Counted from the stretch's first letter, positions 26,612 through 64,000 are shown. The stretch is 64,000 nucleotides of DNA from an uncultured delta proteobacterium (GCA_963766715.1 CAVYBH010000001.1:224001-288000), one strand, 5' to 3'. Numbers and translations are program-made. The notes: generated from the sequence alone by a model not told the origin.

Positions 26612-27502
26612 ATGCCATCCGCACGGAAGGGGATCATCCTGGCCGGGGGGTCGGGAACGCGGCTCTACCCGGCCACGCTGTCGGTCTCGAAGCAGCTGCT
26701 CCCCATCTACGACAAGCCGATGATCTACTACCCGATGTCGGCCCTCATGCTGGCCGGCATCCGGGAGATCCTGGTCATCTCCACGCCCCAGGACACCCCG
26801 CGCTTCGCGCAGCTCCTCGGCGACGGCAGCGCCTGGGGCATGCGCATCGCGTACACGGTCCAGCCCAGCCCGGACGGGCTCGCCCAGGCCTTCATCCTGG
26901 GGGCCGACTTCGTCCGCGGCGGGCCGTCGGCGCTCGTGCTCGGCGACAACATCTTCTACGGCCACGACTTCCACCAGCTGCTCCAGGGCGCCGACGCGCG
27001 GAAGGAAGGGGCGACCGTCTTCGCCTACGCCGTCACCGACCCGGAGCGCTACGGCGTGGTCGAGTTCGACGCCAGGAAGCGGGCCATCTCCATCGAGGAG
27101 AAGCCCCAGAAGCCCAAGTCGCGCTACGCCGTCACCGGCCTCTACTTCTACGACGAGCAGGTGGTCGACTACGCACGCAGCGTGAAGCCGTCGGCCCGCG
27201 GCGAGCTGGAGATCACCGACCTCAACCGCATCTACCTCGAGGCCGGCACGCTCGACGTGGAGATCATGGGGCGCGGCTACGCCTGGCTCGACACCGGCAC
27301 GCACGAGTCGCTGCTCGAGGCCGGCCAGTTCATCTCCACCATCGAGAAGCGGCAGGGGCTCAAGGTGGCCTGCCCGGAGGAGGTGGCCTGGCGCCAGGGC
27401 TGGATCGACGACGCCCAGCTCGCCGCCTGCGCGAAGGCGCTCGGCAAGTCGAGCTACGGCCAGTACCTGCGCGGCCTGCTCGAGCAGAAGGTCTTCACGT
27501 GA
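26612..27502 (+). CDS. rfbA: glucose-1-phosphate thymidylyltransferase
   Basis: [41 protein letters not shown]. Confidence 0.97.
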
Positions 27503-28066
27503 AGATCACCCCCACCTCGATCCCGGACGTCGTGGTGATCGAGCCGCAGGTCTTCGGCGACGCGCGCGGCTTCTTCTTCGAGAGCTTCAACCAGAAGAAG
27601 CTGGAGGCGGCGCTGGGGCGCCCCATGGGCTTCGTGCAGGACAACCACAGCCGCTCGGCCCGCGGCGTGCTGCGCGGGCTGCACTACCAGCTGCCCTTCC
27701 CGCAGGGGAAGCTGGTGCGGGTGATCCAGGGCGAGATCCTGGACGTGGCCGTGGACATCCGGCGCGGGTCCCCCACCTTCGGGAAGTGGGAGAGCGACGT
27801 CCTCACCGCCGAGAACAAGCGGCAGCTCTGGGTGCCGGAAGGCTTCGCCCACGGCTTCCTGGTGCTCTCGGAGGTGGCCGAGGTGCTCTACAAGACCACC
27901 GGCTACTACCACCCGGAGCACGAGCAGTGCATCCGCTGGGACGACCCCGCCATCGGGATCGCCTGGCCGCTCTCCGGCGCGCACGCCGAGGCTCTCGGCG
28001 AAGGACGCGGCGGGGAAGCCGCTCTCGGAAGCCCGCGTCTTCGAACAGGGGGATCTCTCGCGATGA
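27499..28066 (+). CDS. rfbC: dTDP-4-dehydrorhamnose 3,5-epimerase (late frameshift)
   Basis: [34 protein letters not shown]. Confidence 0.95.
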
Positions 28067-29073
28067 ACGTGCTCCTCACCGGCGGTAGCGGCTTCATCGG
28101 CTCCAACCTGGTCCGGCTGCTGCTGGCCGAGCGCCCCGACTGGCGCATCGTCAACCTCGACAAGCTCACCTACGCCGGCAACGCCGAGAACCTGGCCGAC
28201 CTGGCCGGCAACCCGCGCTACCGGTTCGTGCGCGGCGACATCTGCAACGGCGAGCTCATCGCCGACGTCTTCCGCACCGAGAAGATCGAGGCGGTGATGC
28301 ACCTGGCCGCCGAGAGCCACGTCGACCGCTCGATCCTGGCGCCGTCCATCTTCATCGAGACCAACGTGCGCGGCACCCAGGTGCTCCTCGAGGCCGCCCG
28401 CGAGTTCGGCGTGAAGCGCTTCCTGCACGTCTCCACCGACGAGGTCTACGGCTCGCTCGGCCCCACCGGCCTCTTCACCGAGAAGACCCCGCTCGACCCG
28501 TCGTCGCCGTACTCGGCGTCGAAGGCCTCCTCCGACCTGCTGGCGCTGGCCTACGCGCACACCTTCCACCTCCCGGTGGTGGTGACCCGCTGCTCCAACA
28601 ACTACGGCCCGTTCCAGTTCCCGGAGAAGCTCATCCCGCTCATGATCGCGAACGCCATCCGCGACCTGCCGCTGCCGGTGTACGGCGACGGGATGAACGT
28701 GCGCGACTGGATCCACGTCGAGGACCACGGCCGCGGGCTGCTCGCCGCGCTGGAGAAGGGGAAGGACGGCGAGGTCTACAACTTCGGCGCCTCCTCGGAG
28801 CGGCACAACATCGACATCGTGAAGCAGGTGCTGCGGCTGGTGGGCAAGCCCGAGTCGCTCATCCAGTACGTGAAGGACCGGCTCGGCCACGATCGCCGCT
28901 ACGCCATCGACTCGACGAAGGCCCAGGAGAAGCTCTCCTGGGCGCCGCGCCACAAGTTCGAGGACGCGCTCGCCGCCACGGTGCGCTGGTACGTGGAGCA
29001 CCGCCCCTGGTGGGAGCGGATCATCTCGGGCGAGTACCTCAAGTACTACGAGAAGCAGTACGGAGGCCGGTAG
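28063..29073 (+). CDS. rfbB: dTDP-glucose 4,6-dehydratase
   Basis: DKLTYAGN, AAESHVDRSI, STDEVYG, PYSASKA, CSNNYGP, GHDRRY. Confidence 0.97.
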   Translation: MNVLLTGGSGFIGSNLVRLLLAERPDWRIVNLDKLTYAGNAENLADLAGNPRYRFVRGDICNGELIADVFRTEKIEAVMHLAAESHVDRSILAPSIFIETNVRGTQVLLEAAREFGVKRFLHVSTDEVYGSLGPTGLFTEKTPLDPSSPYSASKASSDLLALAYAHTFHLPVVVTRCSNNYGPFQFPEKLIPLMIANAIRDLPLPVYGDGMNVRDWIHVEDHGRGLLAALEKGKDGEVYNFGASSERHNIDIVKQVLRLVGKPESLIQYVKDRLGHDRRYAIDSTKAQEKLSWAPRHKFEDALAATVRWYVEHRPWWERIISGEYLKYYEKQYGGR

Positions 29074-29972
29074 TGAAGGTCGCGGTCACGGGCGCGAACG
29101 GGATGCTGGGCGGCGAGGCGGTGGCCCAGCTGGCCGGCCGCCACGAGGTGCTGGCGCTGGGGCTCGGCCCCGGACGCCCGCCCGAGGGGACCTACCACTG
29201 GGTGGAGGCCGACCTCGGGGACGGACGCTCGGTGGAGGCGGCGCTCCTCGAGTTCGGCGCGCAGGCGGTGCTCCACGCCGGCGCGGTGACCGACGTGGAC
29301 GGCTGCGAGAAGGAGCCGGACGCGGCCTGGCGGGTCAACACCGGCGGCACGCAGCAAGTGGCTCGCGCCTGCCGCGCGCTCGGCGCCCGGCTGGTGGCGG
29401 TCTCCACCGACTACGTCTTCGACGGCGCGTGCGGCCCGTACGGCGAGGACGACCTCCCGAACCCCCGCGGCGTCTACGCCCAGAGCAAGCTGGCCGGGGA
29501 GTGGGCCGCGCTCTCCATCGCCCCCGACAGCGCGGTGGCCCGGGTGGCGGTGGTCTACAGCGGGCGGTCCACGGCGCGTCCGACCTTCGCCACCCAGGTG
29601 GTCGACAAGCTCCGCCGCGGCGAGGTCGTGAAGGCCTTCGACGACCAGTTCACCTCCACGACGCTGGCGGCGAGCGGCGCGGCCATGTGCCTGGAGCTGC
29701 TCCTCGAGCACGCCTACCGGGGCGTGCTCCACGTGAGCGACGAGACGGTGCTCGACCGGGTGGAGTTCGCCCGGAAGGTGGCGGCCCGCTTCGGCCTCCA
29801 GGGCGAGATCGTCCCGGTGAAGACCGCCGACGTGAAGCTGCTCGCCCCCCGGCCGTTGCGGGGTGGACTGCGGGTGGACCGGGCCGCCGCGATGCTCCGG
29901 AACAAGCCCCTGGCGGTCGACGCCGCCCTGGACCGGTTCCACGAGGAGTGGACGCGACGCAACCCCCCGTGA
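29073..29972 (+). CDS. rfbD: dTDP-4-dehydrorhamnose reductase
   Basis: VTGANGMLG, TDVDGCE, STDYVFDG, YAQSKLAGE. Confidence 0.9.
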   Translation: MKVAVTGANGMLGGEAVAQLAGRHEVLALGLGPGRPPEGTYHWVEADLGDGRSVEAALLEFGAQAVLHAGAVTDVDGCEKEPDAAWRVNTGGTQQVARACRALGARLVAVSTDYVFDGACGPYGEDDLPNPRGVYAQSKLAGEWAALSIAPDSAVARVAVVYSGRSTARPTFATQVVDKLRRGEVVKAFDDQFTSTTLAASGAAMCLELLLEHAYRGVLHVSDETVLDRVEFARKVAARFGLQGEIVPVKTADVKLLAPRPLRGGLRVDRAAAMLRNKPLAVDAALDRFHEEWTRRNPP

Positions 29973-38624: not shown

Positions 38625-39593
38625 TTGGCAATTCTAGTCACCGGGGCCGCCGGCTTCATCGGGTCCAATCTCTCGAGAATCGTTCCTGGGTCAGGGCAAG
38701 AGGGTCGTGGGACTCGACGACCTTTCCCTCGGTCGCCTCTCGAATCTCGGCGACGTGCTTGGCCACGCCGGATTCGACTTCGCGCAGGTGGACCTCTCCA
38801 ATCCCGGAGCCTTCAGGGAAGCGCTGACGGCGGCCACCAGAGTGGAACCCCATCACCGAGGTCTGGCACATGGCGGCGAACTCGGACATCCAGGCCGGGG
38901 TCGTCGACCCGCAGGTCGACCTGCGCAACACCTTCCTGACGACCTTTCACACGCTCCAGATGATGAAGGAGCTGGGCATCGGCGTGCTCGCCTTTGCGTC
39001 CTCGTCCGCCATATATGGAAACCACGGAACCGCCACGCTGTCCGAGGACACCGGGCCGCTATTCCCCATATCGAGCTACGGCGCCATGAAGCTCGCGTCG
39101 GAGGCGACGATAAGCGCTGCGGTCGAGAGCTTCCTCGACCGCGCCTACATCTTCCGCTTTCCGAACGTGATCGGCGTGCCGGCGACGCATGGCGTGATGC
39201 TGGACTTCGTCCGGAAGCTGAAGGCCACCCCTGGGAGGCTCGAGGTCCTGGGCGACGGCACCCAGCGCAAGAGCTACCTTCACGTCGAGGAGCTCATCGA
39301 CGCGATGTTCTTCGTGCGCGAGAAGGCCTGCGACGAGATCAACTGCTTCAACATCGGCGCCGACGACGACGGCGTGACGGTACGCGAAATCGCCGAGAGG
39401 GTCGTGCGTGAAGTCGTCGCCTTCCGCCTCGATCGCCTACGGCCAGGGCAACAAAGGCTGGGTGGGGGACGTGCCGACGTTCAAGTATTCCCTGGAGAAG
39501 CTGAGAAGGCTGGGGTGGCAGCCCAGGCTCGGCTCGGCAGAGGCCATCGGCCGGGCCGTGAAGCAGATCGCGGCACAGGAGTCGGAGAAGTGA
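38625..39593 (+). CDS. NAD-dependent epimerase/dehydratase (frameshifted)
   Basis: ILVTGAAGFIGS, HMAANSDI, YGAMK, LGDGTQRKSY, GWVGDVP. Confidence 0.88.
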
Positions 39594-41557
39594 AGCAGGC
39601 CGTGATCCTCGCCGGCGGGAAGGGAACCCGCCTGCGGGAGAGGCTGGGCGACCTTCCGAAGCCCCTGGTCGACATCGGTGGGAAGCCCTTGCTCCAGCGA
39701 CAGCTCGAGCTCCTGAGGAAGCACGGCTACACCCACGCGGTGCTGCTCGTGAGCCACTCCTACGAGAAGATCGTCGACTTCTGCGCCGCGCGTCGAGATG
39801 CCTGGGGCCTCTCCGTCGATTGTCTGAGGGACGATCAGCCGCTCGGTACCGCCGGAGCGGTCCTGGCCCAGCTGGAGCGTCTGGACGACGAGTTCCTCGT
39901 GATCTACGGGGACACCATGATGGACGTCGACCTGGGGCGATTCGAGGCGTTCCACCAATCCGAGGGCGGACGTCGCGGCAACCCTGTTCCTCCACCCGAA
40001 CGATCACCCCGACGACTCCGACCTCGTGGAGATGGACGACCAAGGGAGGATCTCCGCCTTCCACCCCCATCCCCGCGACCCCGTGCGGTACTACGCCAAC
40101 CTCGTCAACGCGGCGCTGTACGCGGTCAACCGCAGGGAGCTGGAGCCGTGGCGCCACCCGAAGGGCCCCGTCGACTTCGGCAAGGACCTCTTTCCGGCCA
40201 TGCTCGACCGTGGGCGGATCCTGCTCGGCTATCCCAGCCCGGAGTACATCAAGGACTGCGGGACGCCTGGGCGGCTCGACAAGGTCCGTGCGCGACTTCA
40301 CGTCCGGCCGCGGTGGCGCGCGCCAGCCTCGACGCTCCGCAGCAGAAGGCCGTCTTCCTCGATCGCGACGGCACGCTCAACCGTGAGGTGGGGCACCTCT
40401 CCCGGCACGACCAGTTCGAGCTGCTGCCAGGCGCGGACGAAGCCATCAAGCGGCTGAACGGATCGGACTACAGCGACGATCGTCGTCACCAACCAGCCGG
40501 TCCTGGCACGAGGGGAGTGCACTCCCGGCGATGTGCAGGCAGGTCCACGCAAAGATGGACACGTTGCTCGGACGCGCGAGGTGCGTACGTCGACCGCCTC
40601 TATTACTGCCCTCACCATCCCGATCGAGGCTTCGTGGGCGAGGTGCCGGAACTCAAGATGCGACTGCGACTGCCGCAAGCCCCGTACCGGCATGGTGGAC
40701 AGGGCCGCCAGGGATTTCAACCTCAACATTCGCGACTCCTGGCTCATCGGCGATTCGTCCGTGGACGTGCTGACGGCGAGCCGCGCGGGCCTGCGCTCCG
40801 TTCTCGTCCAGACCGGAAGCGCGGGCCTCGACGGCCGTCACCGGGTCGCACCCGACTTCGTCGCACCCGGACTTCTCGCCGCGGTGCAGTTCATCCTCGA
40901 CGACCATCCCCGGTTGCTTGCCGAGTGCGCGCGGCTGGGCGCCGGAATCGGCGAGGGCGAGTTCGTGTTCGTGGGAGGGCTCTCGCGCAGCGGCAAGAGC
41001 ACCTTCGCCCACTGCCTGCGCGACGCGCTCCGCGGCAGGGACCGGCCAGCCGTGATACTGTCCCTCGATCGCTGGATCCTGAGCGCGACCGAGCGAACGG
41101 AGACCGTCCTGGGCCGGTATGCCCAGAGCGAGATCCGGGCAATCCTGGCCAGGCTGGCCGCGAGAATCGAGCCCCGTGACCCTTGACCTGCCCTTCTACG
41201 ATCAGAAGAATCGCATCCGCATGGAGAGCACGGAAAAGCCTGATCGTCCACCAGGACGACGTGGTCATCGTCGACGGAACCATCGCCCTGTCCTTGCTCG
41301 ACGCCGGTGCCGTCCCACCTCGCTCGAGGCTGGTTCGTCGACATCGACGAGGACGAGCGCCACGCACGGGTGGTGGAGGAGTACAGGTTGCGGGGCTACA
41401 GCGCGTGACCAGGCGGAAGCCGTCTACCTGGAGAGGCAGCGGGACGAGATCGCCGATCATCCAATCCTCGTCCAGGCTCGCGTCGGAGCGAATCCGCCTC
41501 GAGATGGGGCATGCCCGGCCGCCAGGATCACACCCGACGGCCGGGAGCGCCTCGTGA
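39590..41557 (+). CDS. fused nucleotidyltransferase (HddC-like) / heptose bisphosphate phosphatase (GmhB-like) / P-loop kinase (frameshifted)
   Basis: ILAGGKGTRL..PKPL; FLDRDGTLN, TNQ, CPHHP, CDCRKP, IGDS; then GGLSRSGKST Walker A. Confidence 0.8.
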
Positions 41558-42564
41558 TCATCAGCCGTACGCCGCTCCGCATGAGCTTCGCCGGGGGCGG
41601 CAGCGACCTGCCCGTGCTTCTACCGCGAGCACGGCGGCGCCGTGGTCAGCACCGCCGATCGACAAGTACGTGTACGTCAACGTCAACCGGAAGTTCGACG
41701 ACGGCATCCGGGTGGCCTACTCGCAAGAACGAGGAGGTCGCCAGCGTCCGCGAGATCGAGCACCGGCTGGTCCGCGCGGCGACTGGAGTACCTGCGGCAT
41801 CGACGGCGGGATCGAGATCACGACGATCGCGGACATCCCGTCCAAGGGCACCGGGCTCGGATCCTCCAGCTCGTTCACGGTCGGCCTCCTGAACGCGCTT
41901 GATGCGCTTACATGGGGCGCTACGTGTCCGCAGGAGCAGCTCGGGCAGGGACAGCTGCCGGATCGAGATGGAGATCTGCGGCGAGCCGATCGGCAAGCAG
42001 GACCAGTACGCAGCCGCGTTCGGCGGCTTCAACCTCATCCAGTTCCAGCCCGACGACTCGGTCGTCGTCTCGCCCGATCATCTGCCGTCGAGAGCACGCT
42101 CCGGCAGGTCGAGCGCCAGACCCTGATGCTCTACACCGGCATCACCCGCAGCGCGTCTGGCCTGCTGAAGGCAGCAGTCGGACGAGGTCGGCGCACAGGG
42201 CGGGAAGCAGCGACATCCTGAAGCGGATGGTGGAGCTGACGTACACCCTTGCGCGACGAGCTTCGCCGGGACAACGCCGACGCGATGGGACGAAATCCTC
42301 CACGAGAACTGGGAGCTCAAGAAGAGCATCACCAGCGGGATCAGCACCCCGGAGATCGACGAGTGGTACGCGAAGGCCCGGCGCGCCGGCGCCACGGGCG
42401 GCAAGATCCTCGGGGCCGGGGCCGGCGGGTTCCTCATGCTCTATGCGCCCGAGCAGTCGCACGAGGGCATCAAGAAGGCGCTTCCCGGCTTGCGCCCAAT
42501 CCCCATCAGCTTCGAGCCGCTCGGCAGCCGCATCATCTTCGTCACCGAGACCGGAAGGAATTGA
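41554..42564 (+). CDS. hddA: D-glycero-alpha-D-manno-heptose 7-phosphate kinase (GHMP; frameshifted)
   Basis: [46 protein letters not shown]. Confidence 0.9.
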
Positions 42565-42566
42565 CC

Positions 42567-43137
42567 ATGGAGTCCTTCTCCGGAAGTTCGTCCGCCTATT
42601 TCGCCCGACTGGGGGCCACGATCCAGGCGCTCGATTACCAGAGCCTCGACAGGGCGGTCGCGCTCGTCGCGAAGGCATGGCGCGACGGCCGGCAGGTGAT
42701 CACGCTGGGGAACGGGGGCAGCTCCTTGACAGCCCTGCATTTCGTCAACGACTGGAACAAGAGCGTGGCTGCGCGGGGAGGGCGCCCATTTCGAGGGCGG
42801 AGCCTGGTCGACAACGTCGGCCTGATCATGGCGTATGCGAACGACGTCAGCTTCCAGGACGTGTTCATCGAGCAACTCAAGAACATCCTGACACCCGGGG
42901 ACCTCGTCATCGCAATCTCCGGGGAGCGGCAACTCGGAGAACGTGATCCGGGCGGTGGAGTACGCGAACTCCGCGGGCGCGGTCACGCTGGGATTGTGCG
43001 GCTACGACGGCGGCAGGCTGAAGGAGCGCGCGCATCACCAGGTGTGGGTGAACGTCCACGACATGCAACTCGCCGAGGACGTGCACGCCATGTTCGGCCA
43101 CGTCGTCATGCAGGCCCTGTGCGGGGCGGTACCCTAG
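42567..43137 (+). CDS. gmhA: sedoheptulose 7-phosphate isomerase (SIS domain; frameshifted)
   Basis: GNGGS, ANDVSFQDVF, ISGSGNSENV (across frameshift), GYDGG, EDVH. Confidence 0.88.
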
Positions 43138-52889: not shown

Positions 52890-53669
52890 ATGAAGGCCGT
52901 CATCCTCTGCGGTGGCCAGGGCACCCGCATCCGCGACGCCAGCGAGGCGATCCCCAAGCCGATGCTCCCGATCGGCGGCAAGCCGATCGTCTGGCACATC
53001 ATGAAGTCCTACGCGCGCACGGCGTGAAGGAGTTCGTGCTCTGCCTGGGCTACAAGAGCTGGCTCATCAAGGAGTTCTTCCTCCACTACCGCCCCATGAC
53101 GACCGACGTGACGGTCACGCTCGGCCGCCACGACCGGTCGAGTTCCACGGCCGGCACGGCGAGGAGGACTGGCGGGTGACACTCGCCGAGACCGGGGAGG
53201 ACACCATGACCGGCGGCCGGGTCGCGGCGGTCCGCCGGTACGTCGAGGGCGACGAGCCCTTCCTGCTCACCTACGGTGACGGCGTCTCCGACGTGGACAT
53301 CGCGCAACTCGTCGCTGTTCCACCGCGCCCACGGCAAGGTCGCCACGGTGACCGCGGTGCGCCCGCCGGGGCGCTTCGGCGAGATGCGCATCGACGGCGG
53401 GCGCGTCACGGAGTTCAACGAGAAGCCGCAGGCCAGCGAGGGATTCATCAACGGGGGCTTCTTCGTCCTCGACGGCCGACGGATCTGGGACTACATGGGC
53501 ACGAGCCCCGGACGGTGCTCGAGCGGGAGCCCATGCGGCGGCTCGCGGCGGACGGGCAGCTCGTCGCCTTCCGGCACACCGGCTTCTGGCAGCCCATGGA
53601 CACCTGCGCGAGTACACGCTCCTGAACGACCTGTGGGCGAGCGGGAAGGCGCCCTGGAAGACCTGGTGA
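52890..53669 (+). CDS. rfbF: glucose-1-phosphate cytidylyltransferase (frameshifted)
   Basis: [41 protein letters not shown]. Confidence 0.93.
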
Positions 53670-54769
53670 TGGCGGCGCCCACCCGCCAGGACCTCGCCCG
53701 CGCCTACGCGGGCAAGCGGGTGTTCCTGACCGGGCACACCGGGTTCAAGGGAGGCTGGCTCGCGCTCTGGCTCCGCGACCTGGGGGCCGAGGTCCACGGG
53801 TACGCGCTGGCGCCCGACCCCGACCCGGTCCTCTTCCGGGCCGCCGGCGTCGAGGAGGCGGTCCACCACCGGGTCGGCGACGTGCGGGACCCCGCCGCGC
53901 TCCGGGCCGCGCTCGAGGAGGCCCGCCCCGACTTCGTCTTCCACCTCGCCGCCCAGCCACTCGTCCGGGAGAGCTACGCCGCGCCGGTGGCGACCGTCGA
54001 GACGAACGTCCTCGGGACGGTGCACCTGCTCGAGGCCATCCGGCTGGCGCGGCGCCCCTGCGCGGTGGTGGTCGTGACGAGCGACAAGGCCTACGAGAAC
54101 CGGGAGCGGCACGAGGGGTACCGGCGAGGACGAGGCCATGGGCGGCCACGACCTCTACTCGGCGTCGAAGGGGGCCGCCGAGATCCTCACCTCGGCCTAC
54201 CGGCGCAGCTTCTTCCTCCCGCGCGCCTCGCCGACCACGGCGTGGCGCTCGCCACCGCCCGGGCCGGAAACGTGGTGGGCGGAGGCGACTGGGCGAAGGA
54301 TCGGATCGTCCCGGACGCGGTCGCGCGCTCGCGGCGGGCCGGCCGATCCCGGTCCGAAACCCGCGCCGTGCGCCCCTGGCAGCACGTGCTCGAGCCGCTC
54401 GGCGGCTACCTGCTGCTGGGCGCCCGCCTGGCCGGGCGGGCGGCGCCGCCTTCGCGGAGGGCTGGAACTTCGGCCCGCGCGACGAGGACGCCGTGCCGGT
54501 TCGCGACCTGGTCGAGAACCTCATCGCGGCCTGGGGCAGCGGAACCTGGGAGGACCGGAGCGATCCCGCGCGCCCCACGAGGCGACCTTCCTGCGGCTGC
54601 GCATCGAGAAGGCCCGGGACCGGCTCGGCTGGGCGCCGCGCTGGGGCGTCGGCGAGGCGATGCGGCGCACCGCCGAGTGGTACCGGGCCTTCCACGCCGG
54701 CGCGGGCCCGCCGAGATGCGGGCGCTCACGCTGGCCCAGATCCACGACTACGAGGGAGCCGCCGCGTGA
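53669..54769 (+). CDS. rfbG: CDP-glucose 4,6-dehydratase (frameshifted)
   Basis: [49 protein letters not shown]. Confidence 0.95.
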
Positions 54770-56150
54770 CCGACCGGAAGGCAGAGGAGCGCCGGCTCAC
54801 CGGCGAGATCGTCGAGCGGATGAGGGAGCTGGCGCGCCTGCGGGCCGAGGAGGAGCAGGAGCCCTTCGTCCCCGGCAAGACCCCCGTTCGCTACGCCGGG
54901 CGGGTCTACGGCGAGGAGGAGATGGCGAACCTGGCCGAGGCGTCGGCCGAGTTCTGGCTCACCGCCGGGCGCTGGCACCGGCGGCTGGAGACGGACCTCG
55001 CCGATGGTACGGCGTGAAGCACGCACGACTCGTGAACTCCGGGCTCGTCCGCGAACCTGCTCGCGGTGGCGGCGCTCACGAGCCACCTGCTCGGCGACCG
55101 GCGGCTGCGGCCGGGCGACGAGGTGATCACCGTCGCGGCGGGGTTCCCGACCACGGTGGCGCCGATCATCCAGCACGGGCTGGTCCCGGTGTTCGTCGAC
55201 GTGACGTCCCCACCTGCAACGCCGACGTCTCGCGGCTGGAGGCGGCCCGCTCCCCGCGCACGCGCGCGGTGATGATGGCGCACACGCTGGGGAACCCGTT
55301 CGACCTCGGCGCGGTGAAGGCCTTCTGCGATCGGCACGACCTGTGGCTCGTCGAGGACAACTGCGACGCCGCGGGCTCGACTACCAGGGGAAGAAGACCG
55401 GGACCTTCGGCCACCTGGCCACGCTCTCCTTCTACCCGCCGCACCACATGACGACCGGGGAGGGCGGGGCGGTGCTCACGAGCGACGGCCAGCTCCTGCG
55501 CGCGCGTGGAGAGCCTCCGCGACTGGGGGCGCGACTGCTGGTGCCAGTCGGGCGTGGACAACACCTGCGGCAAGCGCTTCGAGTGGCAGCTGGGCGAGCT
55601 CCCGAGCGGCTACGACCACAAGTACGTGTACAGCCACCTCGGCTACAACCTGAAGATGACCGACCTGCAGGCGGCGGTCGGCGTGGCCCAGCTGGCGCGG
55701 CTCGACGGATTCGGGGCCGCGCGGCGGAGGAACTGGGCCTTCTACCGCGAGGCGCTCGACGACCTGCAGGACGTGCTCGTGCTCCCCGAGGCGACGCCCG
55801 GCTCCGACCCGAGCTGGTTCGGCTTCCTGGTGACGGTGCGCCCGGGAGCCCCTTCACCCGCGACGACCTGGTTCGCAAGCTGGAGGCAGCGGAAGATCCA
55901 GACCCGGATGCTCTTCGCCGGCAACCTCGTCCGGCAGCCCGCGATGACGGTGCTCGCCGCGCAGGCAGCGCGGGCCGGCGACCGCGCCGTACCGCGGCGT
56001 CTGGCAGAGCTCGAGAACACCGACGTCGTCATGAACCGGTCGCTGTGGGTGGGGGTCTATCCGGGGCTCACCGAGGCGATGCGCGACTGGGTCGCCCGAT
56101 CGTTCCGGGAAATATGCAGGACTGGAAAGAGGGGAGCGGCCGCAAGATGA
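54766..56150 (+). CDS. rfbH: CDP-4-keto-6-deoxyglucose 3-dehydratase E1 (frameshifted)
   Basis: [37 protein letters not shown] (His replaces the PLP Lys), [13 protein letters not shown] Fe-S motif, YDHKY. Confidence 0.95.
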
Positions 56151-56822
56151 GGGGACGAACTGCACTTGTCACAGGGGGCGCACGCGGAATTGGGCAGGCA
56201 ATCGTCGAGCTGCTTCGAAGGGAGGAGGGGGGGTTCGTCCTGGCCCCGACCCGGCAGGAAATGGACCTGACCTCGGTCGGAGTCGATCGAGCGGTGCTGC
56301 GGGACCTGCAACTGCCCGTCGACATCCTGGTGAACAACGCGGGGATCAACCCCCTGGGGTCGGCGGGCAGACTTCACCGATTTCACGACCTTGCCGCCAC
56401 CATCCAGGTCAACCTGGTCGCCCCCATGCTGCTCGCGCGGGCGCTGGCCCCCGCCATGGCGCAGCGCGGCTTCGGGAGTACGTCAACGTCAGCTCCATCT
56501 GGAGTGCCGTGTCGCAATCCAGGCGTTTCGTGTACTCGACCACCAAGGCGGGGTTGAACGGCATGACACGGGCGCTCGCGGTCGAGGTCTACGGAATCGG
56601 CGTGTTCGTGAACTCCGTCGCACCGGGATACGTGAACACCGAGATGACGAAGAAGAACAATGCGCCCGACGAGTTGCGGCGCATCGCCGGGACCATCCCA
56701 GCCGGCCGCCTCGCCGAGCCCCCGGAGATCGCGGCGGTCGTGGGCTTTCTCTGCTCGGCGCGGAACAGCTGCTCGTGACCGGGCAGACCCTCTTCGTCGA
56801 CGGCGGCTTCACCATCGTATGA
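56147..56822 (+). CDS. short-chain dehydrogenase/reductase (frameshifted)
   Basis: [32 protein letters not shown]. Confidence 0.85.
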
Positions 56823-57988
56823 GGCTCGACAGGCTCCCGCAGAGGATTGCCGGAAGGATTCGCCGGGAGGTCTCGTCCACGGCCCAGATTTGGCGCAAGA
56901 GCCGCGAGCTCGCGGGCGACCCGGACTACGATCTGGGCCGGGTGGACGAGGGATTCGCCGACCGCAGGGAGCCGCCCGCGGACGACTCGGAGATCCTGAC
57001 CCGCATCTGCGTGGCCTACGGCAAGGCCAAGGCGATCCAGAAGGACGCCTCGCCCGTCTACCGGCCGAGCAACGAGTGGCTGCCCGTCTACGAGGCGCCG
57101 CTCAAGCCCGTCATGGCGGCGCTGTCCAGCCACGACCTCCCCTCGCTCCGGAGGATGTACGGCAACTTCTGGAGGGACCCCTGCAGCACGGGGCTCCTGG
57201 GCTGGCCGCTCGACATGCAGACGGCCTTCTTCGGGAGGCGCATCAGCCGGCGCCACCGGATGCTGATGCTGAACGACGTGATTCACCGGCACCGGCTGTG
57301 GCGGAGCCTGCTCGGCAACACGCACGGCGTGAAGGACCTGGAAGCGCCCGCCATCGGCAATCCCTTCGGGTTCTTCGTCGACGGCACGTTCCTGAACTGC
57401 GGATGCGACTACCAGCACTACTACGCCACGCTCATCGGCCGGCTGCTCCGGACGGAGTCGACTCCCTGCGTGGTGGAGCTGGGCGGCGGGTTCGGGGGAA
57501 TGGCGTACTACCTGATCCGCGACAACCCGGGCGCCGCCTACGTCGACCTGGACCTCCCGGAGAACGCCGCGCTCACCGCCTACCACCTCCTGAAGGCATT
57601 TCCCGGGAGGCGGATCCGCCTGTTCGGCGAGGCCGGATCGATTGAGGCGTCCATCCGGGACCGGGAGATCCAGATCCTGCCCAGCTTCGAGGCCGGGAAC
57701 CTCCCGGACCAGTGCGCCGGCGTCGCCTTCAACTCCTACAGCCTGGCGGAGATGTCCCGGGAGACCATCACGTCCTTCATCCAGGACATCAGCCGGGTGG
57801 TTCACCCGAAGGGATATTTCCTCCACGTGAACCACAACAAGAACAGCCTGGTCACCGCCGACGAGTTCGGCGTGGATCCCGCGCGCTTCGACCTGCTCTA
57901 CAAGGTCCCGGCCATGTGGAACCTGGGGATCAATCCCCGGATGGACGAGTTCGAGTACCTGTACAAGAAGAGGGCCTCGGCGGCCTGA
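56819..57988 (+). CDS. putative sugar O-methyltransferase
   Basis: IGNPFG, VELGGGFGG, DLPEN, NSYSLAEM: pattern of polysaccharide-locus O-methyltransferases; intact ORF. Confidence 0.75.
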   Translation: MRLDRLPQRIAGRIRREVSSTAQIWRKSRELAGDPDYDLGRVDEGFADRREPPADDSEILTRICVAYGKAKAIQKDASPVYRPSNEWLPVYEAPLKPVMAALSSHDLPSLRRMYGNFWRDPCSTGLLGWPLDMQTAFFGRRISRRHRMLMLNDVIHRHRLWRSLLGNTHGVKDLEAPAIGNPFGFFVDGTFLNCGCDYQHYYATLIGRLLRTESTPCVVELGGGFGGMAYYLIRDNPGAAYVDLDLPENAALTAYHLLKAFPGRRIRLFGEAGSIEASIRDREIQILPSFEAGNLPDQCAGVAFNSYSLAEMSRETITSFIQDISRVVHPKGYFLHVNHNKNSLVTADEFGVDPARFDLLYKVPAMWNLGINPRMDEFEYLYKKRASAA

Positions 57989-58012
57989 GGGCCGGGCCCG
58001 CCGCGGGGCGGC

Positions 58013-59102
58013 CTACAGCCCGCGCAGCTCGATCCGCGCGGAGCTCCTCGTCGTAGGCGTACGGGCTGTCGACACGTCGATCATGATCGGCTTGTCCGCC
58101 TCCACCGGCTCAGCAGCACCTCGCCGCGCATCAGCTCGCGGCAGGAGATCTGCCCCTTCTGCAGCGGGATGGCGAGATAGACGTCCCTCGTGCCTCGCGT
58201 GAGCACGTGGCCGGCCGGCAGGTCGCGCTCGCGCGTAGACGCCGCGGACAGGGCGTCGAGGTACGTCGATCTCCTTGTCGCATCGGCCGCTTCTGCTCGA
58301 TGCCGGGCGCGCCGCACATCTCCTGCGCCTTCTTGAAGGCCTTGAACCAGTTGTCGATCTGCTGGGGCAGCGAGCAGTACGGGGAGACGCCACGCCGTCG
58401 GCGTCGATGTCGATGTGGCGCTCGAAGGTGCGCGCGCCCTTGGCGTAGGCGATCAGCGATCGACGCGGTCCAGTCGTGGTACTCGTGCGTCGAGAAGCCG
58501 ATGACGTGGTCCGGGTAGCGGTTCGCGCAGGAAGTCGATCTGGTTGAGCTCGAGCTCGTGGTCCTCGGTCGGGTAGAGCGAGACGCAGTGGTTGATGGCC
58601 AGCGGGATGTTGCGGTTCTCGAAGAAGGTGACGAGGTCGTCCATGTCCTTCAGCGACGAGCCGCCGGTGGACACGATGACCGGCTTGCCGTGGTCCGCGA
58701 TCTTCTCGATCAGGATCCAGTCGTTGATGTCGGAGCTGGCGATCTTGATGATCGGCAGGCCGAGCTCCACGCACAGGTCGACGGACTCCTCGTCGAACGG
58801 CGTGGCCATCGGGATGCAGCCGCTCTCGCGGATCGCCTCCACCAGCGTGGCGTAGTCGTCGTTCGGCAGCTGGGTGTCGAGACGTCTCTTGATGTAGCGG
58901 ATGTCGGTGCGGTCGCCGGAAGTCCTTGTGGATGAAGCTCTCGACGTCGCGGAACTGGAGCTTGATCGCGGCCCGGACGTTGTTGAAGCGGACGATGCGC
59001 GAGAACTCTAGATGATCTTCAGGCCGCGCTCGAGCTTGCCCGGTGGTTGTTGGCCATCTCCAGGACGAAGAGGTCCTCGAAGATGTCGCGGTTCATGATC
59101 AT
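58013..59102 (-). CDS. NeuB-like PEP-dependent synthase with C-terminal SAF domain (frameshifted)
   Basis: LFVLEMANNH, IKLQFRD, TPFDE.SVD, IKIASSD, STGG, HCVSLYP, G.STHE, FERHID, RGVYA. Confidence 0.88.
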
Positions 59103-60301
59103 GCGGTTCCTTTCTCAAGTGCTGGCGCGCCGTTGGAGCGCTCCGCCATGGACTGCACGATCTCGCGCAGCTCCCCGGCGAACCGCTCGTTGTTCTCCAC
59201 GCCGAGGAAGGCGAGCCGCCCCACCTCGGTCATCACCACCAGGTTCAACGTCGAGCCGGTGTTCTTCTTGTCCCGGGACAGGGCCTCGCGCAGCTGCCCC
59301 AGGTCGAGCGCGCCCAGCGCCGCCCGGCAGCGGTCGTCGACGATCAGGTCGATCACGCCAGCACCCGGCGTGTGGGGACGGCCGGCCTCGATCATGCCGC
59401 GGTTGGCCGCCACCCGGTTGACGATGGCCATGCCCAGCCCGATGGCCTGCCCGTGCGGGATGGCGAACCCCGAGAGGTTCTCGATGGCGTGGCCGATGGT
59501 GTGGCCGTAGTTGAGGGCCCGCCGCTGGTCCAGCTCGAACTCGTCCCGCTCGATCACCGCGCGCTTCACCACCAGCGAGTCCCAGGTGAGGGCGCGCAGC
59601 GCCTGCAACGACGGCAGCCCGCCGCCGGCGGCGTCGAACGCGGCGGCGAAGCGGTCGGCGAAGAGGGCCCGCCGGTGAGGTGGAGCTTGAGGATTCCGCC
59701 CAGGCCGGAGCGCAAGATCCAGCGGGGCGCCAGCGTGGCCAGGAAGCCGGGGTCGATCACCACCTGGCGCGGCGCCGCGAAGAGCGCCAGCTGGTTCTTG
59801 TACTTGCCGTGGTTCACGCCGGCCTTGGCGCCGATGCAGCTGTCGCACTGCGACAGCAGCGTGGTGGAAGAAGGTCGAGGGGAGGCCCCGCTTGAAGAGG
59901 TGGGCCGCGAAGCCGCCCACGTCCTGGACGATGCCCCCACCCACCACCACCAGGGTATTGGTCTGCGTCAGCCCCGCCTCGGCCAGCCAGTCGAGCACCG
60001 GGATGACGCCGCCGGCGGGCGACTTGACCGCCTCGCTGGCGGTGAGCTCGAGCACGCGGCCCCCCGGGTCCACGGCCACGCCGGCCAGGTGGAGGGCCCG
60101 GACCTTGCCGTCCACCAGCAGGCGCGCCCGCGGGTGCTTGGCCAGCAAGGTTCCGCCAGCCACTCGGCGGCGGCCGCGCCGGGGGCCTGCCGCACGGTGT
60201 AGGTCCTGGGGACCGACCGGATTTCCAGCTCCCGGGGCGGCCAGATTGGCCGCGTCGACGCGGTAGGTCTCGTCCTGGATCCTGAAGGCGAGCTGGTTCA
60301 T
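59099..60301 (-). CDS. 3-dehydroquinate synthase / sugar-phosphate cyclase superfamily protein (AroB-related; frameshifted)
   Basis: VVGGGIVQD, TTLLSQCDSCIGAKAGVN, KNQL, RALNYGHTIGHAIE, HGQAI, DKKN. Confidence 0.85.
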   Translation of the reverse strand: MNQLAFRIQDETYRVDAANLAAPGAGNPVGPQDLHRAAGPRRGRRRVAGGTLLAKHPRARLLVDGKVRALHLAGVAVDPGGRVLELTASEAVKSPAGGVIPVLDWLAEAGLTQTNTLVVVGGGIVQDVGGFAAHLFKRGLPSTFFHHAAVAVRQLHRRQGRREPRQVQEPAGALRGAAPGGDRPRLPGHAGAPLDLALRPGRNPQAPPHRRALFADRFAAAFDAAGGGLPSLQALRALTWDSLVVKRAVIERDEFELDQRRALNYGHTIGHAIENLSGFAIPHGQAIGLGMAIVNRVAANRGMIEAGRPHTPGAGVIDLIVDDRCRAALGALDLGQLREALSRDKKNTGSTLNLVVMTEVGRLAFLGVENNERFAGELREIVQSMAERSNGAPALEKGTA

Positions 60302-60970
60302 CCGGCCTGGAATCCCCCGGCGGTGTAGCCGCCGTCGGCCACCACGTTCTGCCCCGTCAGGTAGCGGTTGGCCTCGCTGCAGAGGAACCAGGCCAGCTCG
60401 GCGATGTCGGCGGGCTGCCCGAGCCGGCGCAGCGGGACCGCCGCCTCCAGGGACCGGATGGTGGCCTCGTCGTTGTTGCGCCGGGTCATGGCGGTGTCGA
60501 TGAAGCCGGGCGAGAGGGCGTTGACCAGCACGCCGTCCCGCCCCAGCTCCAGGGCCAGCGAGCGGACCGCGCCGATGAGGGCGTGCTTGGAGGTGGCGTA
60601 GGCCAGCCGCTTCTCGCGGGCGATGACGCCGTAGATTGAGGAGATGGCCAGCACCCGGCCGCTGCCGCGGGCGCGGAAGCCGGGCGCCAGCAGCTGGCAT
60701 AGCCGCACGAAGGACACGGTGTTGACGCGCAGGGAGCGCTCCAGCTCCTCGAGGGGGATCTGCTCGAAGGGCTTGGGCGTGTTGAACCCGGCGCAGTGGA
60801 CGAAGGCGTCGAAGGGGGTCTGGGCGGCCACGAAGGGGGCCAGCCCGGGCGTCGGCCGAGAGATTCAGCTCCCGGCTGCGCGGCGCCACCACCTCGAACC
60901 CGGCCCGGGCGAAGCGGTCGCCGATGGCGGCGCCGATCTCGCCGTGGCCGCCTGTGAGCAGGAGCCGCAC
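60298..60970 (-). CDS. short-chain dehydrogenase/reductase (one frameshift)
   Basis: LTGGHGEIG, ISSIYG, YATSK, LSPGFIDT, LTGQNVVADGG. Confidence 0.88.
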
Positions 60971-60973
60971 CGG

Positions 60974-62768
60974 TCAGCCGTCCCGGCGGGACGAGCAGGT
61001 TCTCGGCTAGTTCGTCCCGGTCGAGGAAGGGCGCGAGGTCCTCGAGCGGCGAGGAGACCATCGCCCGTCTCGAGCCGGCGGAGGCGAGCTTCGGCGCGAA
61101 CGGCTGGCGAGGTCGAGCATCACCTCGCAGAGCACCGGCGCCCGGCGGCGCGAGGACGTCGCCCAGGTCCCCGGCAGGTCCGCGTGGGCCGCGACTGCGG
61201 TAGGGGAGGCCGTAGGCCGCGGCCAGCCTGCCGAAGTCGGGGAAGCTGAGCCCGGTCTCGAGGCTGCAGCACCACGTTGCCGGGAAGAAGGCCTCCTGGG
61301 TCTGGCGGATCGAGTGGTAGCCGGCGTTGTCCAGGACGAAGAGCTTGAGCGGCAGCCGGTGGTGCGGACCGTCTGCAGCTCCTGCAGGTTCATCTGGAGG
61401 CTGCCGTCGCCGGCGAGGCAGACGACCGCTTGCCGCCGGTCGCGAAGCGGCGCCGATGGCGGCCGGGAGGTCGTACCCCATCGCGGCGCAGCCGGAGTTG
61501 GTGAAGAGGCGCTGGCCCGTCCTAGATGGGCCGCCTGGAAGGTGCGACGCAGGCGGTGCCGTCGCCCGCCACCACGTGGCGTCCCTCCGGGAGGCGCTCG
61601 CAGAGCGCCTGGACGAAGCAGTACGGGTTCACGTCGCCGCTCTCCAGTACTCCGGCAGCACGACCGGGTAGCGCTCGCGCCGCGCGCGGCACCAGTCGCG
61701 CCAGCCCGGTCCGCCGGGTGCGGCGCGCCGGCGGCGGGATCCGCGAGCAGCGGCGTCGAGGAAGCGCCGAGCGTCGGCGTGCACGGGCAGGTCGAGCGTG
61801 ACCGTGGGCTTCTCCAGCTCGGCGGCGTCGATGTCGACCACGGTCTTGAAGGCGGCGCGGGCGAAGGCCTGCCAGAAGTAGCTGACCTGCCGGATGTTGA
61901 GCCGGCTGCCGAGCACGAGCAGGAAGTCGGCGTTCTGCACGGCGAAGTTCCCGGCGCGGTCGCCGATGGTCCCGGGGCGGCCGACGTAGAGCGGGTGGTC
62001 GCCGCGAGCAGGTCGTGGGCGTTGCAGGCGGTCACCACCGGGATCCCCAGCCCCTCGGCGAAGCGCCGGAGCGCTCGCGGCGCGCCGCGCGAGTGCGGAT
62101 GCCCGGGCCGGCGAGGACGACCGGCCGCTCGGCGCGCGCGAGCCGCCGAGCAGCCTCGCGCAGCGCCGGCGAGCGCGCGCCCGTCGAGCGAGCGGCGCGC
62201 TCCGCCGCCGGCGGATCGTAGCCGGCGAGCGCCGCCTCGTCGACCTGCGCCCCCTGCACGTTCATCGGGACGTCGATCCAGACCGGGCCCGGGCGGCCCG
62301 ACCGTCGCGAGGTGGAGCGCCTTCTCGAGGTGGTAGCGGATCGGCGCGGGTCGGTGACCATCACGGCGTACTTGGTGATCGGCGCGACCAGCGGACGATG
62401 TCGATCTCCTGGTCGCCGAGCTGGCGCAGCGGCGACCGGGCGTGCGCCGAGCAGGTCTCCTGCTTCACCTGCCCGGAGACGAAGAAGCAGGGCCGGAGTC
62501 GACGTAGGCCCCGAAGACGCCGGTGATGGCGTTGGTCCCGCCGGGGCCGGTGGTCACGTTGACCGCCGCGAGGCGGCCGGTGACGCGGGAGTAGCTCTCC
62601 GCGGCCATGGCGCAGGCCTGCTCGTGGTGGCAGGAGACGTACTCGAGCCCCTTGCGCGGCCGAAGGCGTCGTTGAGGTGCATCGCGCCGCCGCCGGTCAC
62701 CAGGAAGACGTGGCGGAACCCCGGGCGGCGAGGGTCTGGGCGATGTAGTCGGCGACGCGGATCGACAT
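60974..62768 (-). CDS. thiamine-diphosphate-dependent carboligase (acetolactate-synthase-like, YerE type; heavily frameshifted)
   Basis: VADYIA, VTGGGAMHLND, HHEQACAMAAE, TTGPGGTNA, GRPGPVWIDVP, MGYDLPAAIGA, GDGSLQMNLQEL...NAGY ThDP motif. Confidence 0.9.
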
Positions 62769-62826
62769 TCGGACTCCACCGGAAATTCGGACTCAGGGAG
62801 GCGAAATAGTATCGTAGGGCCCCGGC

Positions 62827-63875
62827 ATGACCAAAGGGTTCTCCACCGATTTCGCGCGCTTCGAGCGGGATGCCCCGCGGCTCTGGGAGCCCTACCGAGG
62901 GGCGCGCCTGCTCGTCACCGGGGGTACGGGTTTCGTGGGCAAGTGGCTCCTGGAGGGGCTGCTCCACGGCGTCGACGCGCTCGGCCTGGACACCCGGGTG
63001 ACGGTGCTGACCCGCGACCCGGACGCCTTCCGGAGGCTGCACCCCCGGCTGGCGCGCCACCCGCGGATCACCCTCCTGCCGGGCGACGTCCTCACGCTGC
63101 GATTGCTCGCCGGGGAGTTCACCCACGTCGTCCACGGCGCCGCCTCGGCGAACGCGAAGGACTACGCGGCCGCGCCGAGGGTGATGTTCGACACCATCGT
63201 CGAGGGGACCCGGCGCCTGCTCGAGCTCTCCCGGCTCGCCGGGGCCCGTCGGTTCCTCTTCCTCAGCTCCGGGGCGGTCTACGGCCGCCAGCCCCCCGAG
63301 CTCTCCCACGTTCCCGAGTCGTTCGAGGAGCACCGACGCCGCGGCCCCGGGCACGGAGTACGGGCAGGCCAAGCGCGCCGCGGAGCAGCTCTGCACGGCC
63401 GCGGCCGGCACGGAGATGGACGCGGTGCTCGCGCGGTGCTTCGCGTTCTCTGGCCCGTACTTGCCGCTCGACGCCCACTTCGCGATCGGCAACTTCGTGC
63501 GGGACGCGATCCAAGGAGGGCCGATCGGATCAGGGCGACGGAACCCCGATGCGCTCCTACCTCTACGGCGCGGACCTGGCCGCGTGGCTCCTCACCCTGC
63601 TGGCGCGTGGGCGGGCCGGACGGGCCTACAACGTCGGTTCGGAGGCGGCCATCTCGATCGAGGACCTGGCGAAGACGGTGACGCGGGTGCTCGCGGTCGG
63701 TCCCGGGGTGGAGATCGCCGGCCAGCGCGTGCCGGGGCGGTTGCCCGAGCGGTACGTACCCTCCACGAGGCGAGCCCGGGAGGAGCTCGGGCTCGTGGAA
63801 ACCGTGAGCCTGGAGCGGGCCATCCTCCGGATGGCGGAGGAGGCACAATGGCGAAGAAGCTCATCAGCATCCTGA
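62827..63875 (+). CDS. NAD-dependent epimerase/dehydratase (extended SDR; frameshifted)
   Basis: [42 protein letters not shown]. Confidence 0.88.
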
Positions 63876-64000
63876 CCCCCTGCTACAACGAAGAGGACAA
63901 CGTCGAGGAACTGACCGGCGCGTCCGCGCCGTCATGGCAGCCGCCGGCGCTACCGGTACGAGCACATCTTCGTTGACAACGCTCCACCGACCCACCGTCG
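63848..64000 (+). CDS. glycosyltransferase family 2 (GtrB/DPM-synthase-like N-terminus), truncated by the window end
   Basis: [22 protein letters not shown]...HIFVDN. Confidence 0.75.

Follow-up and report, generated by a model that had tools for sequence, protein, structure and literature searches.

For erwiniose, caryophyllose, and gastriose, the core chemistry of long-branched sugar synthesis has been published, and comprises an aldolase, a ThDP carboligase acting onto CDP-4-keto-3,6-dideoxyglucose, and a reductase (PMC9306805). The systems brought together under this unifying scheme, namely yersiniose A (YerE/YerF), erwiniose (ErwE/F/I/J), gastriose (MyGE/F/I), and the C6-branched sugar of R. 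palustris, share the same acceptor (PMC9306805; review, PMC12247030). The scheme is silent on the making of a deoxy-terminated donor (PMC9306805), and the main texts of PMC9306805 and PMC12247030 contain no mention of dehydroquinate synthase (DHQS), NeuB, a kinase, or PEP. The caryophyllose of Mycobacterium marinum is 3,6-dideoxy-4-C-(d-altro-tetrahydroxyhexyl)-d-xylo-hexose, the branch of which is acyclic and methyl-terminated (PMC5706390). Genes MMAR_2328-2336 of this species are annotated as sugar kinase, DHQS-family protein, SDR, aldolase/citrate lyase, ThDP enzyme, GT2, RfbF, RfbH, and RfbG (PMC12395582, supplement), and mutants in MMAR_2331-2333 lack caryophyllose (PMC9306805, PMC5706390). 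Our literature search, which left most subscription journals outside, found neither a route to the terminal methyl of the side chain nor a paper in which branched sugars are connected with an enzyme of the DHQS-like or NeuB-like kind.

The window, a stretch of 64,000 nucleotides from an uncultured delta proteobacterium, ends in a locus that most likely builds a rare, caryophyllose-kind long-branched surface sugar by a route of the published type, with the side chain apparently made by relatives of NeuB and DHQS. The pathway type itself is already published; what is new here is the enzyme role proposed for the AroB-like and NeuB-like proteins. Genes on the plus strand (rfbF-rfbG-rfbH-SDR-O-methyltransferase) converge on a minus-strand block of ThDP, SDR, AroB-like, and NeuB-like genes, from which an extended SDR and a GT2 gene diverge (Table 1). 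Pfam, tblastn with intact relatives, and the sequence itself confirmed these genes and their order as originally predicted, together with the 4-bp ATGA overlaps at 60298-60301 and 59099-59102, both of which were read in the sequence. In this assembly, frameshifts interrupt nearly all genes across 30-64 kb. A same-family genome, G203, is collinear with positions 58035-63837 at 75% DNA identity, covers the ThDP-SDR-AroB-NeuB block, and carries eight of the cluster's genes without internal stops.

Table 1. Genes of the locus, in window coordinates
Feature	Position	Strand	Basis and remarks
rfbF/ddhA, glucose-1-phosphate cytidylyltransferase	52890-~53669	+	Pfam, tblastn with intact relatives; frameshifted
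rfbG/ddhB, CDP-glucose 4,6-dehydratase	~53672-54769	+	Pfam, tblastn; frameshifted, start approximate
rfbH/ddhC, E1 3-dehydrase	54766-56150	+	Pfam, tblastn; frameshifted; call supported by a relative (L009) scoring above the NF011936 RfbH cutoff
Classical SDR, AroB-partner family	56147-56822	+	Pfam, relatives; orthologous to the SDR that HpcH-type clusters carry in genomes of the same family (75% over 95 aa)
Putative sugar O-methyltransferase (TIGR04371)	56819-57988	+	Open frame; 56.5 bits, cutoff 44
NeuB-family PEP-dependent ulosonate synthase, ThDP-linked neuA-less clade	58013-59102	-	Nearest structure 3G8R
AroB-like (TIGR04425-related) putative sugar-phosphate phospholyase, glycan-locus clade	59099-60301	-	Pfam, family models, tree
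Classical SDR, AroB partner	60298-60970	-	Matches the SDR in the NeuB-type cluster of G203 at 77%
YerE-like ThDP carboligase	60974-62768	-	Pfam, tblastn; G203 orthologue closest to JanthE 8RPH
Extended (NDP-sugar) SDR	62827-~63875	+	Pfam, tblastn; candidate YerF-type reductase
GtrB/DPM-type GT2, start	63848-64000, runs on to ~64780	+	tblastn
GtrA-like gene	~64840-65190, beyond the window

The caryophyllose block of M. marinum resembles this locus in that DHQS-family, SDR, aldolase, ThDP, GT2, and RfbF/H/G genes lie adjacent, on the M. marinum side by annotation only; the placement of MMAR_2329 in the DHQS family likewise comes from annotation, not sequence. The M. marinum aldolase, however, belongs to the HpcH/citrate-lyase family, while the window has the NeuB-like gene in that slot, and no HpcH match was found in the source genome, which is 84.6% complete. 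Furthermore, the M. marinum block contains a sugar kinase that the window lacks, whereas the window alone has the O-methyltransferase and a second SDR paralogue; a methyltransferase is also present in the R. palustris cluster. The expectation that caryophyllose producers carry both NeuB-like and AroB-like genes therefore held for the DHQS-family gene and SDR of M. marinum, but not for its aldolase. The NeuB-like enzyme is a substitute for the aldolase, not the caryophyllose route itself.

Both the unifying-scheme systems and the window combine a ThDP carboligase using a functionalized 2-oxo acid with a reductase. Intact orthologues of the ThDP enzyme matched JanthE (8RPH) with E values of 1e-122 and 4e-113, compared with about 1e-68 or weaker for AHAS, and scored under every AHAS cutoff, placing them in the YerE-like group and not with AHAS. 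The enzyme is also closer to the long-donor JanthE than to 5AHK (7e-71), and its gene almost always adjoins an aldolase; here, the rfbF/G/H genes for CDP-4-keto-3,6-dideoxyglucose adjoin it as well. A long-branched sugar made via this ThDP enzyme is thus very probable, in support of the original prediction, although the ThDP/aldolase/reductase logic was not new (PMC9306805). For the reduction of the new branch ketone, a second SDR had been proposed. Both classical SDRs of the window, however, are paralogues of the AroB-partner reductase, a mosaic arrangement, so the YerF step falls more likely to the extended SDR, which is present in many NeuB-ThDP loci, AroB-positive or not, and is the better candidate by gene context.

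The NeuB-like protein shares with the nonulosonate synthases NeuB, PseI, and SpsE a TIM barrel with an AFP-like domain and the PEP and metal residues. Its clade is about 20% identical to NeuB, versus 37% to 3G8R, an uncharacterized protein of Chromobacterium violaceum. In this clade, the K-R-P motif has a hydrophobic residue in place of its Arg. Identity as a sialic acid synthase was rejected, as the protein scores under the NeuB and PseI cutoffs, lacks the Arg with which the AFP domain of NeuB holds the N-acetyl group, and has no neuA partner. In line with the original prediction, neuA was found neither in the window nor in the 8 kb that follow it before the contig ends, and the three cytidylyltransferase matches in the source genome are two kdsB-like and one glmU. 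Among 32 loci with NeuB-like genes, 26 carry the ThDP gene, and neuA occurs in none of these 26; it occurs in 4/4 loci of the sister NeuB clade. The NeuB-like enzyme would replace, without a neuA partner, the pyruvate aldolase from which the donors of the published route come, and we are fairly confident that it supplies the 2-oxo acid donor.

To judge from its sequence, the AroB-like protein is distinct from the housekeeping AroB. Its clade fails TIGR01357 (score, 234; cutoff, 305), and one branch (SH-aLRT, 96) in a quick tree of 94 rows separates 27/27 labeled sugar-context AroB-like proteins from 16/16 aro-operon AroBs. The possibility that it is the genome's sole aroB can be set aside, as a separate housekeeping gene lies within an aroC-aroK-aroB-aroQ-like run. 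TIGR04425 is the best model for the closest intact relatives (284 to 287 bits, under the curated cutoff of 400), and another member of the clade, L068, exceeds this cutoff with 409. Fold (TM of about 0.78 to AroB) and every position that DHQS uses for catalysis and metal binding (NAD, Zn, and substrate residues) are retained across the clade and are common to AroB and the sugar-phosphate cyclases EEVS, EVS, DDGS, and DOIS; the glycan-locus context is particular to the AroB-like proteins. The protein is nearer to AroB (E value, 2e-38) than to ValA (5e-29) or DOIS (1e-23), and could in principle be an EVS. Clade markers are Q/E in the glycine loop, W139, C153, and an aromatic residue at 252, and no residue marking non-cyclization was found in the clade alignment, the catalytic positions being those of true AroB. 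The enol intermediate of DHQS is said to cyclize spontaneously, which counts against a non-cyclizing enzyme. Of 8000 scored proteins, 1917 matched the AroB-like profile at an E value of 1e-60 or below, a number in which true AroBs may be included. A search for AroB fusions of greater length (771 to 2200 aa) gave none that scored among 8000 candidates, a weak negative. A plasmid search with the AroB-like and NeuB-like proteins at 1e-30 gave zero matches. An apparent AroB-NeuB protein in one frame (P0018) was dismissed as a probable sequencing artifact, having a truncated start, an off-frame stretch, and an internal start-like Met.

The AroB-like gene travels with particular partners. Among 26 NeuB+ThDP loci, the SDR is present in 3/3 AroB-positive versus 1/23 AroB-negative loci. 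The corresponding values across 61 viral NeuB+ThDP loci are 28/29 and 3/32 for the SDR, and 29/29 and 0/32 for an FGGY kinase. In 40 tabulated AroB-anchored metagenome loci, the aldolase is NeuB in 5, HpcH in 8, and HMGL-type in 6, never two together, and the layout is conserved in same-family genomes with NeuB (G203) or HpcH (G243 and G085). On this evidence of gene content, the AroB-like protein and the classical SDR, usually with the FGGY kinase, form an optional cassette that pairs with three interchangeable aldolase families. The cassette was gained or lost at least 12 times on a NeuB tree (FastTree, 72 rows), which points to an optional tailoring unit within a host pathway whose demand for a 2-oxo acid is constant. 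The source genome has no orthologue of the cassette kinase (best match, 45 bits, versus 534 to 563 for true orthologues), its only sugar-kinase-type match being a glycerol kinase, so that here the aldose must be the source of the phosphate. It also has zero matches to PF00970, the family of the E3 reductase (ddhD/rfbI). Another reductase may stand in for E3. With both the usual kinase and E3 family missing, the pathway was too strongly described as complete. Phosphatase genes are absent from 29/32 AroB-negative viral loci, so that the NeuB product may or may not be phosphorylated. Strict mutual exclusion of HAD phosphatase and AroB was rejected, since both occur in L029, L041, and L200, and our comparison found no NeuB residues separating kinase, phosphatase, and neither contexts.

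The reading we favor, with moderate confidence as a whole, is a CDP-3,6-dideoxyhexose with a long, methyl-ended 4-C branch and the caryophyllose skeleton, perhaps O-methylated. RfbF/G/H would make CDP-4-keto-3,6-dideoxyglucose, as known for these families, with a reductase for E1 from elsewhere. The NeuB-like enzyme would condense PEP with a tetrose phosphate, for which we infer erythrose 4-phosphate, to 3-deoxy-heptulosonate 7-phosphate. The AroB-like enzyme would then carry out DHQS-type oxidation, phosphate elimination, and reduction, releasing a C6 methyl ketone with the ring left open, and a classical SDR would reduce this ketone. The ThDP enzyme is predicted to decarboxylate the 2-oxo acid and add the six-carbon unit at C4, for which homologous enzymes acting on model substrates provide in vitro precedent, before the extended SDR reduces the branch ketone and GT2 with GtrA loads the sugar on a lipid carrier for addition to the surface glycan. 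A C12 skeleton is somewhat favored; chain length and branch stereochemistry are as we infer them. By our own derivation, a branch of d-altro configuration calls for a donor of D-ribo configuration (the C4 epimer of DAHP), and NeuB-type facial selectivity on erythrose 4-phosphate would yield such a donor. The AroB-like enzyme and SDR probably deoxygenate rather than cyclize, as suggested by the kinase, DHQS-family, SDR, and aldolase annotations in the M. marinum caryophyllose locus.

We lean only slightly toward action of the AroB-like enzyme and SDR on the ulosonate rather than on an aldose. In the opposite order, which is unlikely, they would convert an aldose phosphate to a 4-deoxy-tetrose for condensation with PEP or pyruvate, with the end product unchanged. 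This order would suit a cassette compatible with three unrelated aldolase families, the pyruvate and aldehyde substrates of the published aldolases (PMC9306805), and a short aldose presumably incapable of unwanted ring closure. However, the tie between kinase and AroB would be superfluous were cellular erythrose 4-phosphate the substrate, and the basic active-site residues of the NeuB-like protein are the same with or without the cassette. The Lys/Lys/Arg positions invariant in the AroB-like clade, which we take to bind the carboxylate of DAHP, also speak for the ulosonate. It is decidedly unlikely that the AroB-like enzyme is a true cyclase making, with the SDR and any kinase, a separate cyclitol or carbasugar decoration, the NeuB-like/ThDP branch then ending in a hydroxyl. 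The DHQS fold and catalytic set would accord with cyclization, as would the word "cyclizing" in the (hypothetical) name of TIGR04425, clade members in ThDP-less loci beside SIS and cytidylyltransferase genes (L060, L072, and L091), and the carbocycle caryose, which co-occurs with caryophyllose in one species (PMC9092360). Yet the M. marinum LOS, as described, has caryophyllose and no carbocycle while a DHQS-family gene lies inside its caryophyllose block, L075 is an HpcH-AroB fusion, and the tabulated loci show no additional nucleotidyltransferase accompanying the cassette.

It is quite improbable that the branch differs in length (a C7 branch built on a pentose phosphate, as in gastriose, would be one case) or in stereochemistry, giving a sugar not of the caryophyllose type. 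YerE-like enzymes take C3-C8 donors (PMC9306805), and two SDR paralogues could give opposite configurations, but a DHQS-type elimination should depend on an unblocked hydroxyl two carbons away from the phosphate, present in the pyranose form of a heptulosonate but not in that of an octulosonate, and NeuB is directly swapped for HpcH in an otherwise identical layout. It is highly improbable that the window copy is a decayed island without a product, or that the ThDP enzyme uses pyruvate to give yersiniose. Frameshifts run all through 30-64 kb, where long coding-like runs make up 5 to 11%, versus 78% of 0-15 kb, just 9/37 confident single-base indels fall in base runs, and in the AroB-like protein of this assembly the Glu that serves as Zn ligand reads Gly. 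On the other hand, breaks also affect export genes and a second cluster on contig C4, a pattern expected of an unpolished region, and the G203 orthologues are intact; assembly error is the likely cause, though decay of this copy is possible too. Against yersiniose stand the proximity of the ThDP enzyme to JanthE and the aldolase nearly always beside it.

A wider proposal, which we regard as evenly balanced, is that the AroB-like family would be a non-cyclizing phospholyase in a mobile cassette for terminal deoxygenation of ulosonic acids, and the NeuB clade a 3-deoxy-D-ribo-heptulosonate (epi-DAHP) synthase, together supplying caryophyllose-type side-chain steps in bacteria, including M. marinum, and viruses. 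If true, this would assign roles to MMAR_2328-2330-like genes, add a non-cyclizing member to the sugar-phosphate cyclase superfamily and a non-sialic product to the NeuB fold, make branch structure predictable from cassette presence, and imply that, in viruses and glycan loci, many genes now labeled "aroB," "ilvB," or "neuB" are misannotated. The four-gene block of G203, which is kinase-free, compact, and intact, provides a test system.

The part of the window between 30 and 64 kb is a large surface-polysaccharide island (GC content of the window, approximately 72%) in which most genes carry frameshifts, the majority of the indels lying outside base runs; the region from 0 to 15 kb is mostly intact. 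All genes named in the original prediction were found at the position and on the strand given for them, and the two 4-bp overlaps it claimed are real, while its interpretation was partly supported by the comparisons described here. In the same-family genome G203, eight of the cluster's genes are present without internal stops, with the extended short-chain dehydrogenase/reductase (SDR) gene followed by ThDP-SDR-AroB-NeuB-rfbF-rfbG-rfbH, and this region is collinear with the window at 75% DNA identity. The gene set is therefore real, though mostly frameshifted here. Other sugar modules and a small endonuclease gene are listed with the remaining features in the table.

Locations of features in the window and in related loci
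Feature	Location	Strand	Remarks
Segment collinear with G203	window 58035-63837
Other sugar modules of the island	window 21962-29948 and 39077-42767		DegT aminotransferase, gmd/fcl-like pair, rmlACBD; also a nucleotidyltransferase/HAD/GHMP kinase/SIS set that resembles an NDP-heptose pathway
Small HNH endonuclease	window 20813-21211	-	edge of glycan island; adjoins wzi
Second cluster, same genome	G000:C4:17083-26748 (L121:5954-15619)		rfbF-rfbG-rfbH-ThDP-NeuB-like-FkbM(-)-epimerase-GT2-GtrA
HpcH-aldolase/AroB-like fusion, 608 aa	L075:8996-10822		metagenome contig, 32% GC

A scan of GTDB genomes with the NeuB-like protein returned at least 601 candidate stretches, which gave 32 loci among the matches listed. 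A ThDP gene is present in 26 of these 32 loci, and neuA is found in none of the 26; neuA is present in all four loci of a sister NeuB clade, and two more loci, short or truncated, have neither gene (all among the matches listed). The sister-clade loci (L031 to L034) place the NeuB gene beside a neuA-like gene without ThDP, and their longer members carry a C-terminal cupin. The closest structure to the NeuB-like protein is the uncharacterised 3G8R (37% identity; TM score, 0.87), a structural-genomics "SpsE" from Chromobacterium violaceum that is usable for modelling the aldose site. The PEP and metal residues are kept. In NeuB, Arg314 of the K-R-P motif positions the N-acetyl group, according to PMC6795526; a hydrophobic residue of the NeuB-like protein aligns with this Arg, as mapped via a canonical-type homologue (from locus L072) rather than the N. 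meningitidis sequence. The cytidylyltransferases of the genome are kdsB-like and glmU. Because the K-R-P Arg is replaced and neuA is missing, the product is predicted to be neither N-acetylated nor CMP-activated, which would fit a role as donor for the ThDP enzyme.

Across loci, the AroB-like gene, a classical SDR gene, and usually an FGGY kinase gene behave as an optional cassette. Among the 26 bacterial NeuB+ThDP loci in the matches listed, a classical SDR gene accompanies 3/3 AroB-positive versus 1/23 AroB-negative loci and an FGGY kinase gene 2/3 versus 0/23, and 14 of the 23 AroB-negative loci have a HAD phosphatase; at the genome level, a high-scoring AroB-like gene occurs in 4 of those 26 genomes, which are incomplete. 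The NeuB-ThDP module is also common on viral contigs, with or without the cassette: it is present in 61 of 77 viral loci (L160 to L236), where AroB and kinase are both present in 29 and both missing in 32, many of the viruses being related. Strong branches of the NeuB tree (72 rows, a subset of loci) force at least 12 cassette changes. In an AroB-anchored survey of the best 80 of 593 metagenome matches, 40 of which were tabulated, NeuB was the neighbouring aldolase in 5, an HpcH/citrate-lyase-family enzyme in 8, and an HMGL-type enzyme in 6. The aldolase is likewise swapped within the window's own family, with NeuB in G203 and HpcH in G243 and G085 in the same surroundings. No cassette kinase was found in the genome under study or in G203, G243, G085, and G267 (best matches, 39 to 47 bits, versus 534 to 563 for true orthologues).

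The minus-strand SDR of the window is 77% identical to that of G203, and the plus-strand SDR is 75% identical, over a 95-aa piece, to that of the HpcH-type clusters of G243 and G085. Since both classical SDRs belong to the AroB-partner family, the convergent layout is an apparent join, and the cluster looks like a mosaic in which two forms of a single pathway meet. An NDP-sugar-type enzyme, the extended SDR is a better candidate than the classical SDRs for the YerF step, reduction of the branch ketone; it or a related epimerase-type gene accompanies the ThDP gene with or without AroB. The second cluster, on contig C4, has no AroB-like, SDR, HAD, or kinase gene and is an example, within the same genome, of the cassette-free form; its rfbFGH genes share 90% DNA identity with those of the window, and its product may be a version with a hydroxyl-terminated branch.

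Besides the AroB-like gene, the genome has a separate, intact aroB, which lies on contig C8 amid shikimate genes. A quick maximum-likelihood tree built from 94 proteins (51 rows without label) has a single branch (SH-aLRT, 96) that separates the 27 sugar-context rows from the 16 aro-context rows; the closest named match of the AroB-like protein is labelled Anaeromyxobacteraceae. For the closest intact relatives, the best curated model is TIGR04425 (284 to 287 bits; cut-off, 400), ahead of the aroB model (234 to 236). The TIGR04425 label, a hypothetical "AroB-related phospholyase (cyclizing)", would favour ring closure, as the original prediction had allowed. The predicted fold is that of 3-dehydroquinate synthase (DHQS; pLDDT, 96.9), and the clade keeps all catalytic and metal positions of true AroB while being marked by Q/E123, W139, C153, and F/Y/L252; the Zn-ligand Glu is Gly in the assembled sequence of the window. 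Sequence by itself does not distinguish a cyclising from a non-cyclising enzyme. The DHQS enol intermediate is reported to cyclise spontaneously, and this is the main chemical objection to the non-cyclising route. Ring closure, in turn, would destroy the 2-oxo acid that the ThDP enzyme needs.

ErwE, MMAR_2332, and MyGE are proposed, and partly demonstrated, to add functionalised 2-oxo acids, made by pyruvate aldolases, to a CDP-ketosugar (PMC9306805), a scheme reviewed in PMC12247030; the words "dehydroquinate", "NeuB", "kinase", and "phosphoenolpyruvate" are absent from the main texts of both. The natural substrates of JanthE are described as unknown in PMC12188165, as is the origin of caryose in PMC9092360; PMC4426668 lists the cyclase superfamily, and a term search of PMC13354803 returned nothing relevant. 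The structure of caryophyllose, whose branch ends in CH3, and mutant phenotypes are given in PMC5706390. In Mycobacterium marinum, a known producer, the supplement of PMC12395582 annotates MMAR_2328 as a sugar kinase, 2329 as DHQS-family, 2330 as an SDR, 2331 as an aldolase/citrate lyase, 2332 as ThDP, 2333 as GT2, and 2334 to 2336 as RfbF/H/G. By these annotations, the AroB-like/SDR pair expected of caryophyllose producers is present as in the window, whereas the NeuB-like enzyme, also expected, belongs to the window and not to M. marinum.

We infer all steps of the following mechanism. In the M. marinum block, the kinase, DHQS-like, and SDR genes would be the only ones left for making the CH3 end, and phosphorylation, elimination, and reduction would amount exactly to terminal deoxygenation. 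The AroB-like step would act on the ulosonate, for three reasons: the basic residues binding the carboxylate of DAHP do not vary, the kinase goes with AroB, and NeuB stays constant whether or not the cassette is present. Going by the sugar names, the donor would need the D-ribo configuration, epimeric to DAHP at C4; Neu5Ac shares that C4 configuration, and a NeuB-type enzyme with erythrose 4-phosphate would yield it, so that DAHP from the two DAHP synthases of the genome would not simply be used. As the window has no cassette kinase, its aldose would have to arrive already phosphorylated. We give this joint reading, a non-cyclising DHQS family with a NeuB-like epi-DAHP synthase, an even chance of being correct. 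The window adds to it a kinase-free NeuB version, a NeuB/HpcH swap inside one family, a two-SDR mosaic, and a cassette-free paralogue cluster in the same genome.

AroB-like domains also occur in other settings: fused with a D-2-hydroxyacid dehydrogenase (P0130; 687 aa), and twice in a 2,653-aa protein with a ROK kinase and a zinc dehydrogenase (P0133). Loci L060, L072, and L091 combine AroB-like and SDR genes, without ThDP, with genes for a SIS isomerase, Gfo/Idh oxidoreductases, and a cytidylyltransferase; such a set may encode a pathway for a CMP-activated deoxy-ulosonate or a cyclitol. Finally, in two Zoogloea MAGs (L020 and L022), the NeuB-ThDP cluster lies directly upstream of genes recognised by a motif as flagellin-like, a hint that a branched sugar may be attached to flagellin there.
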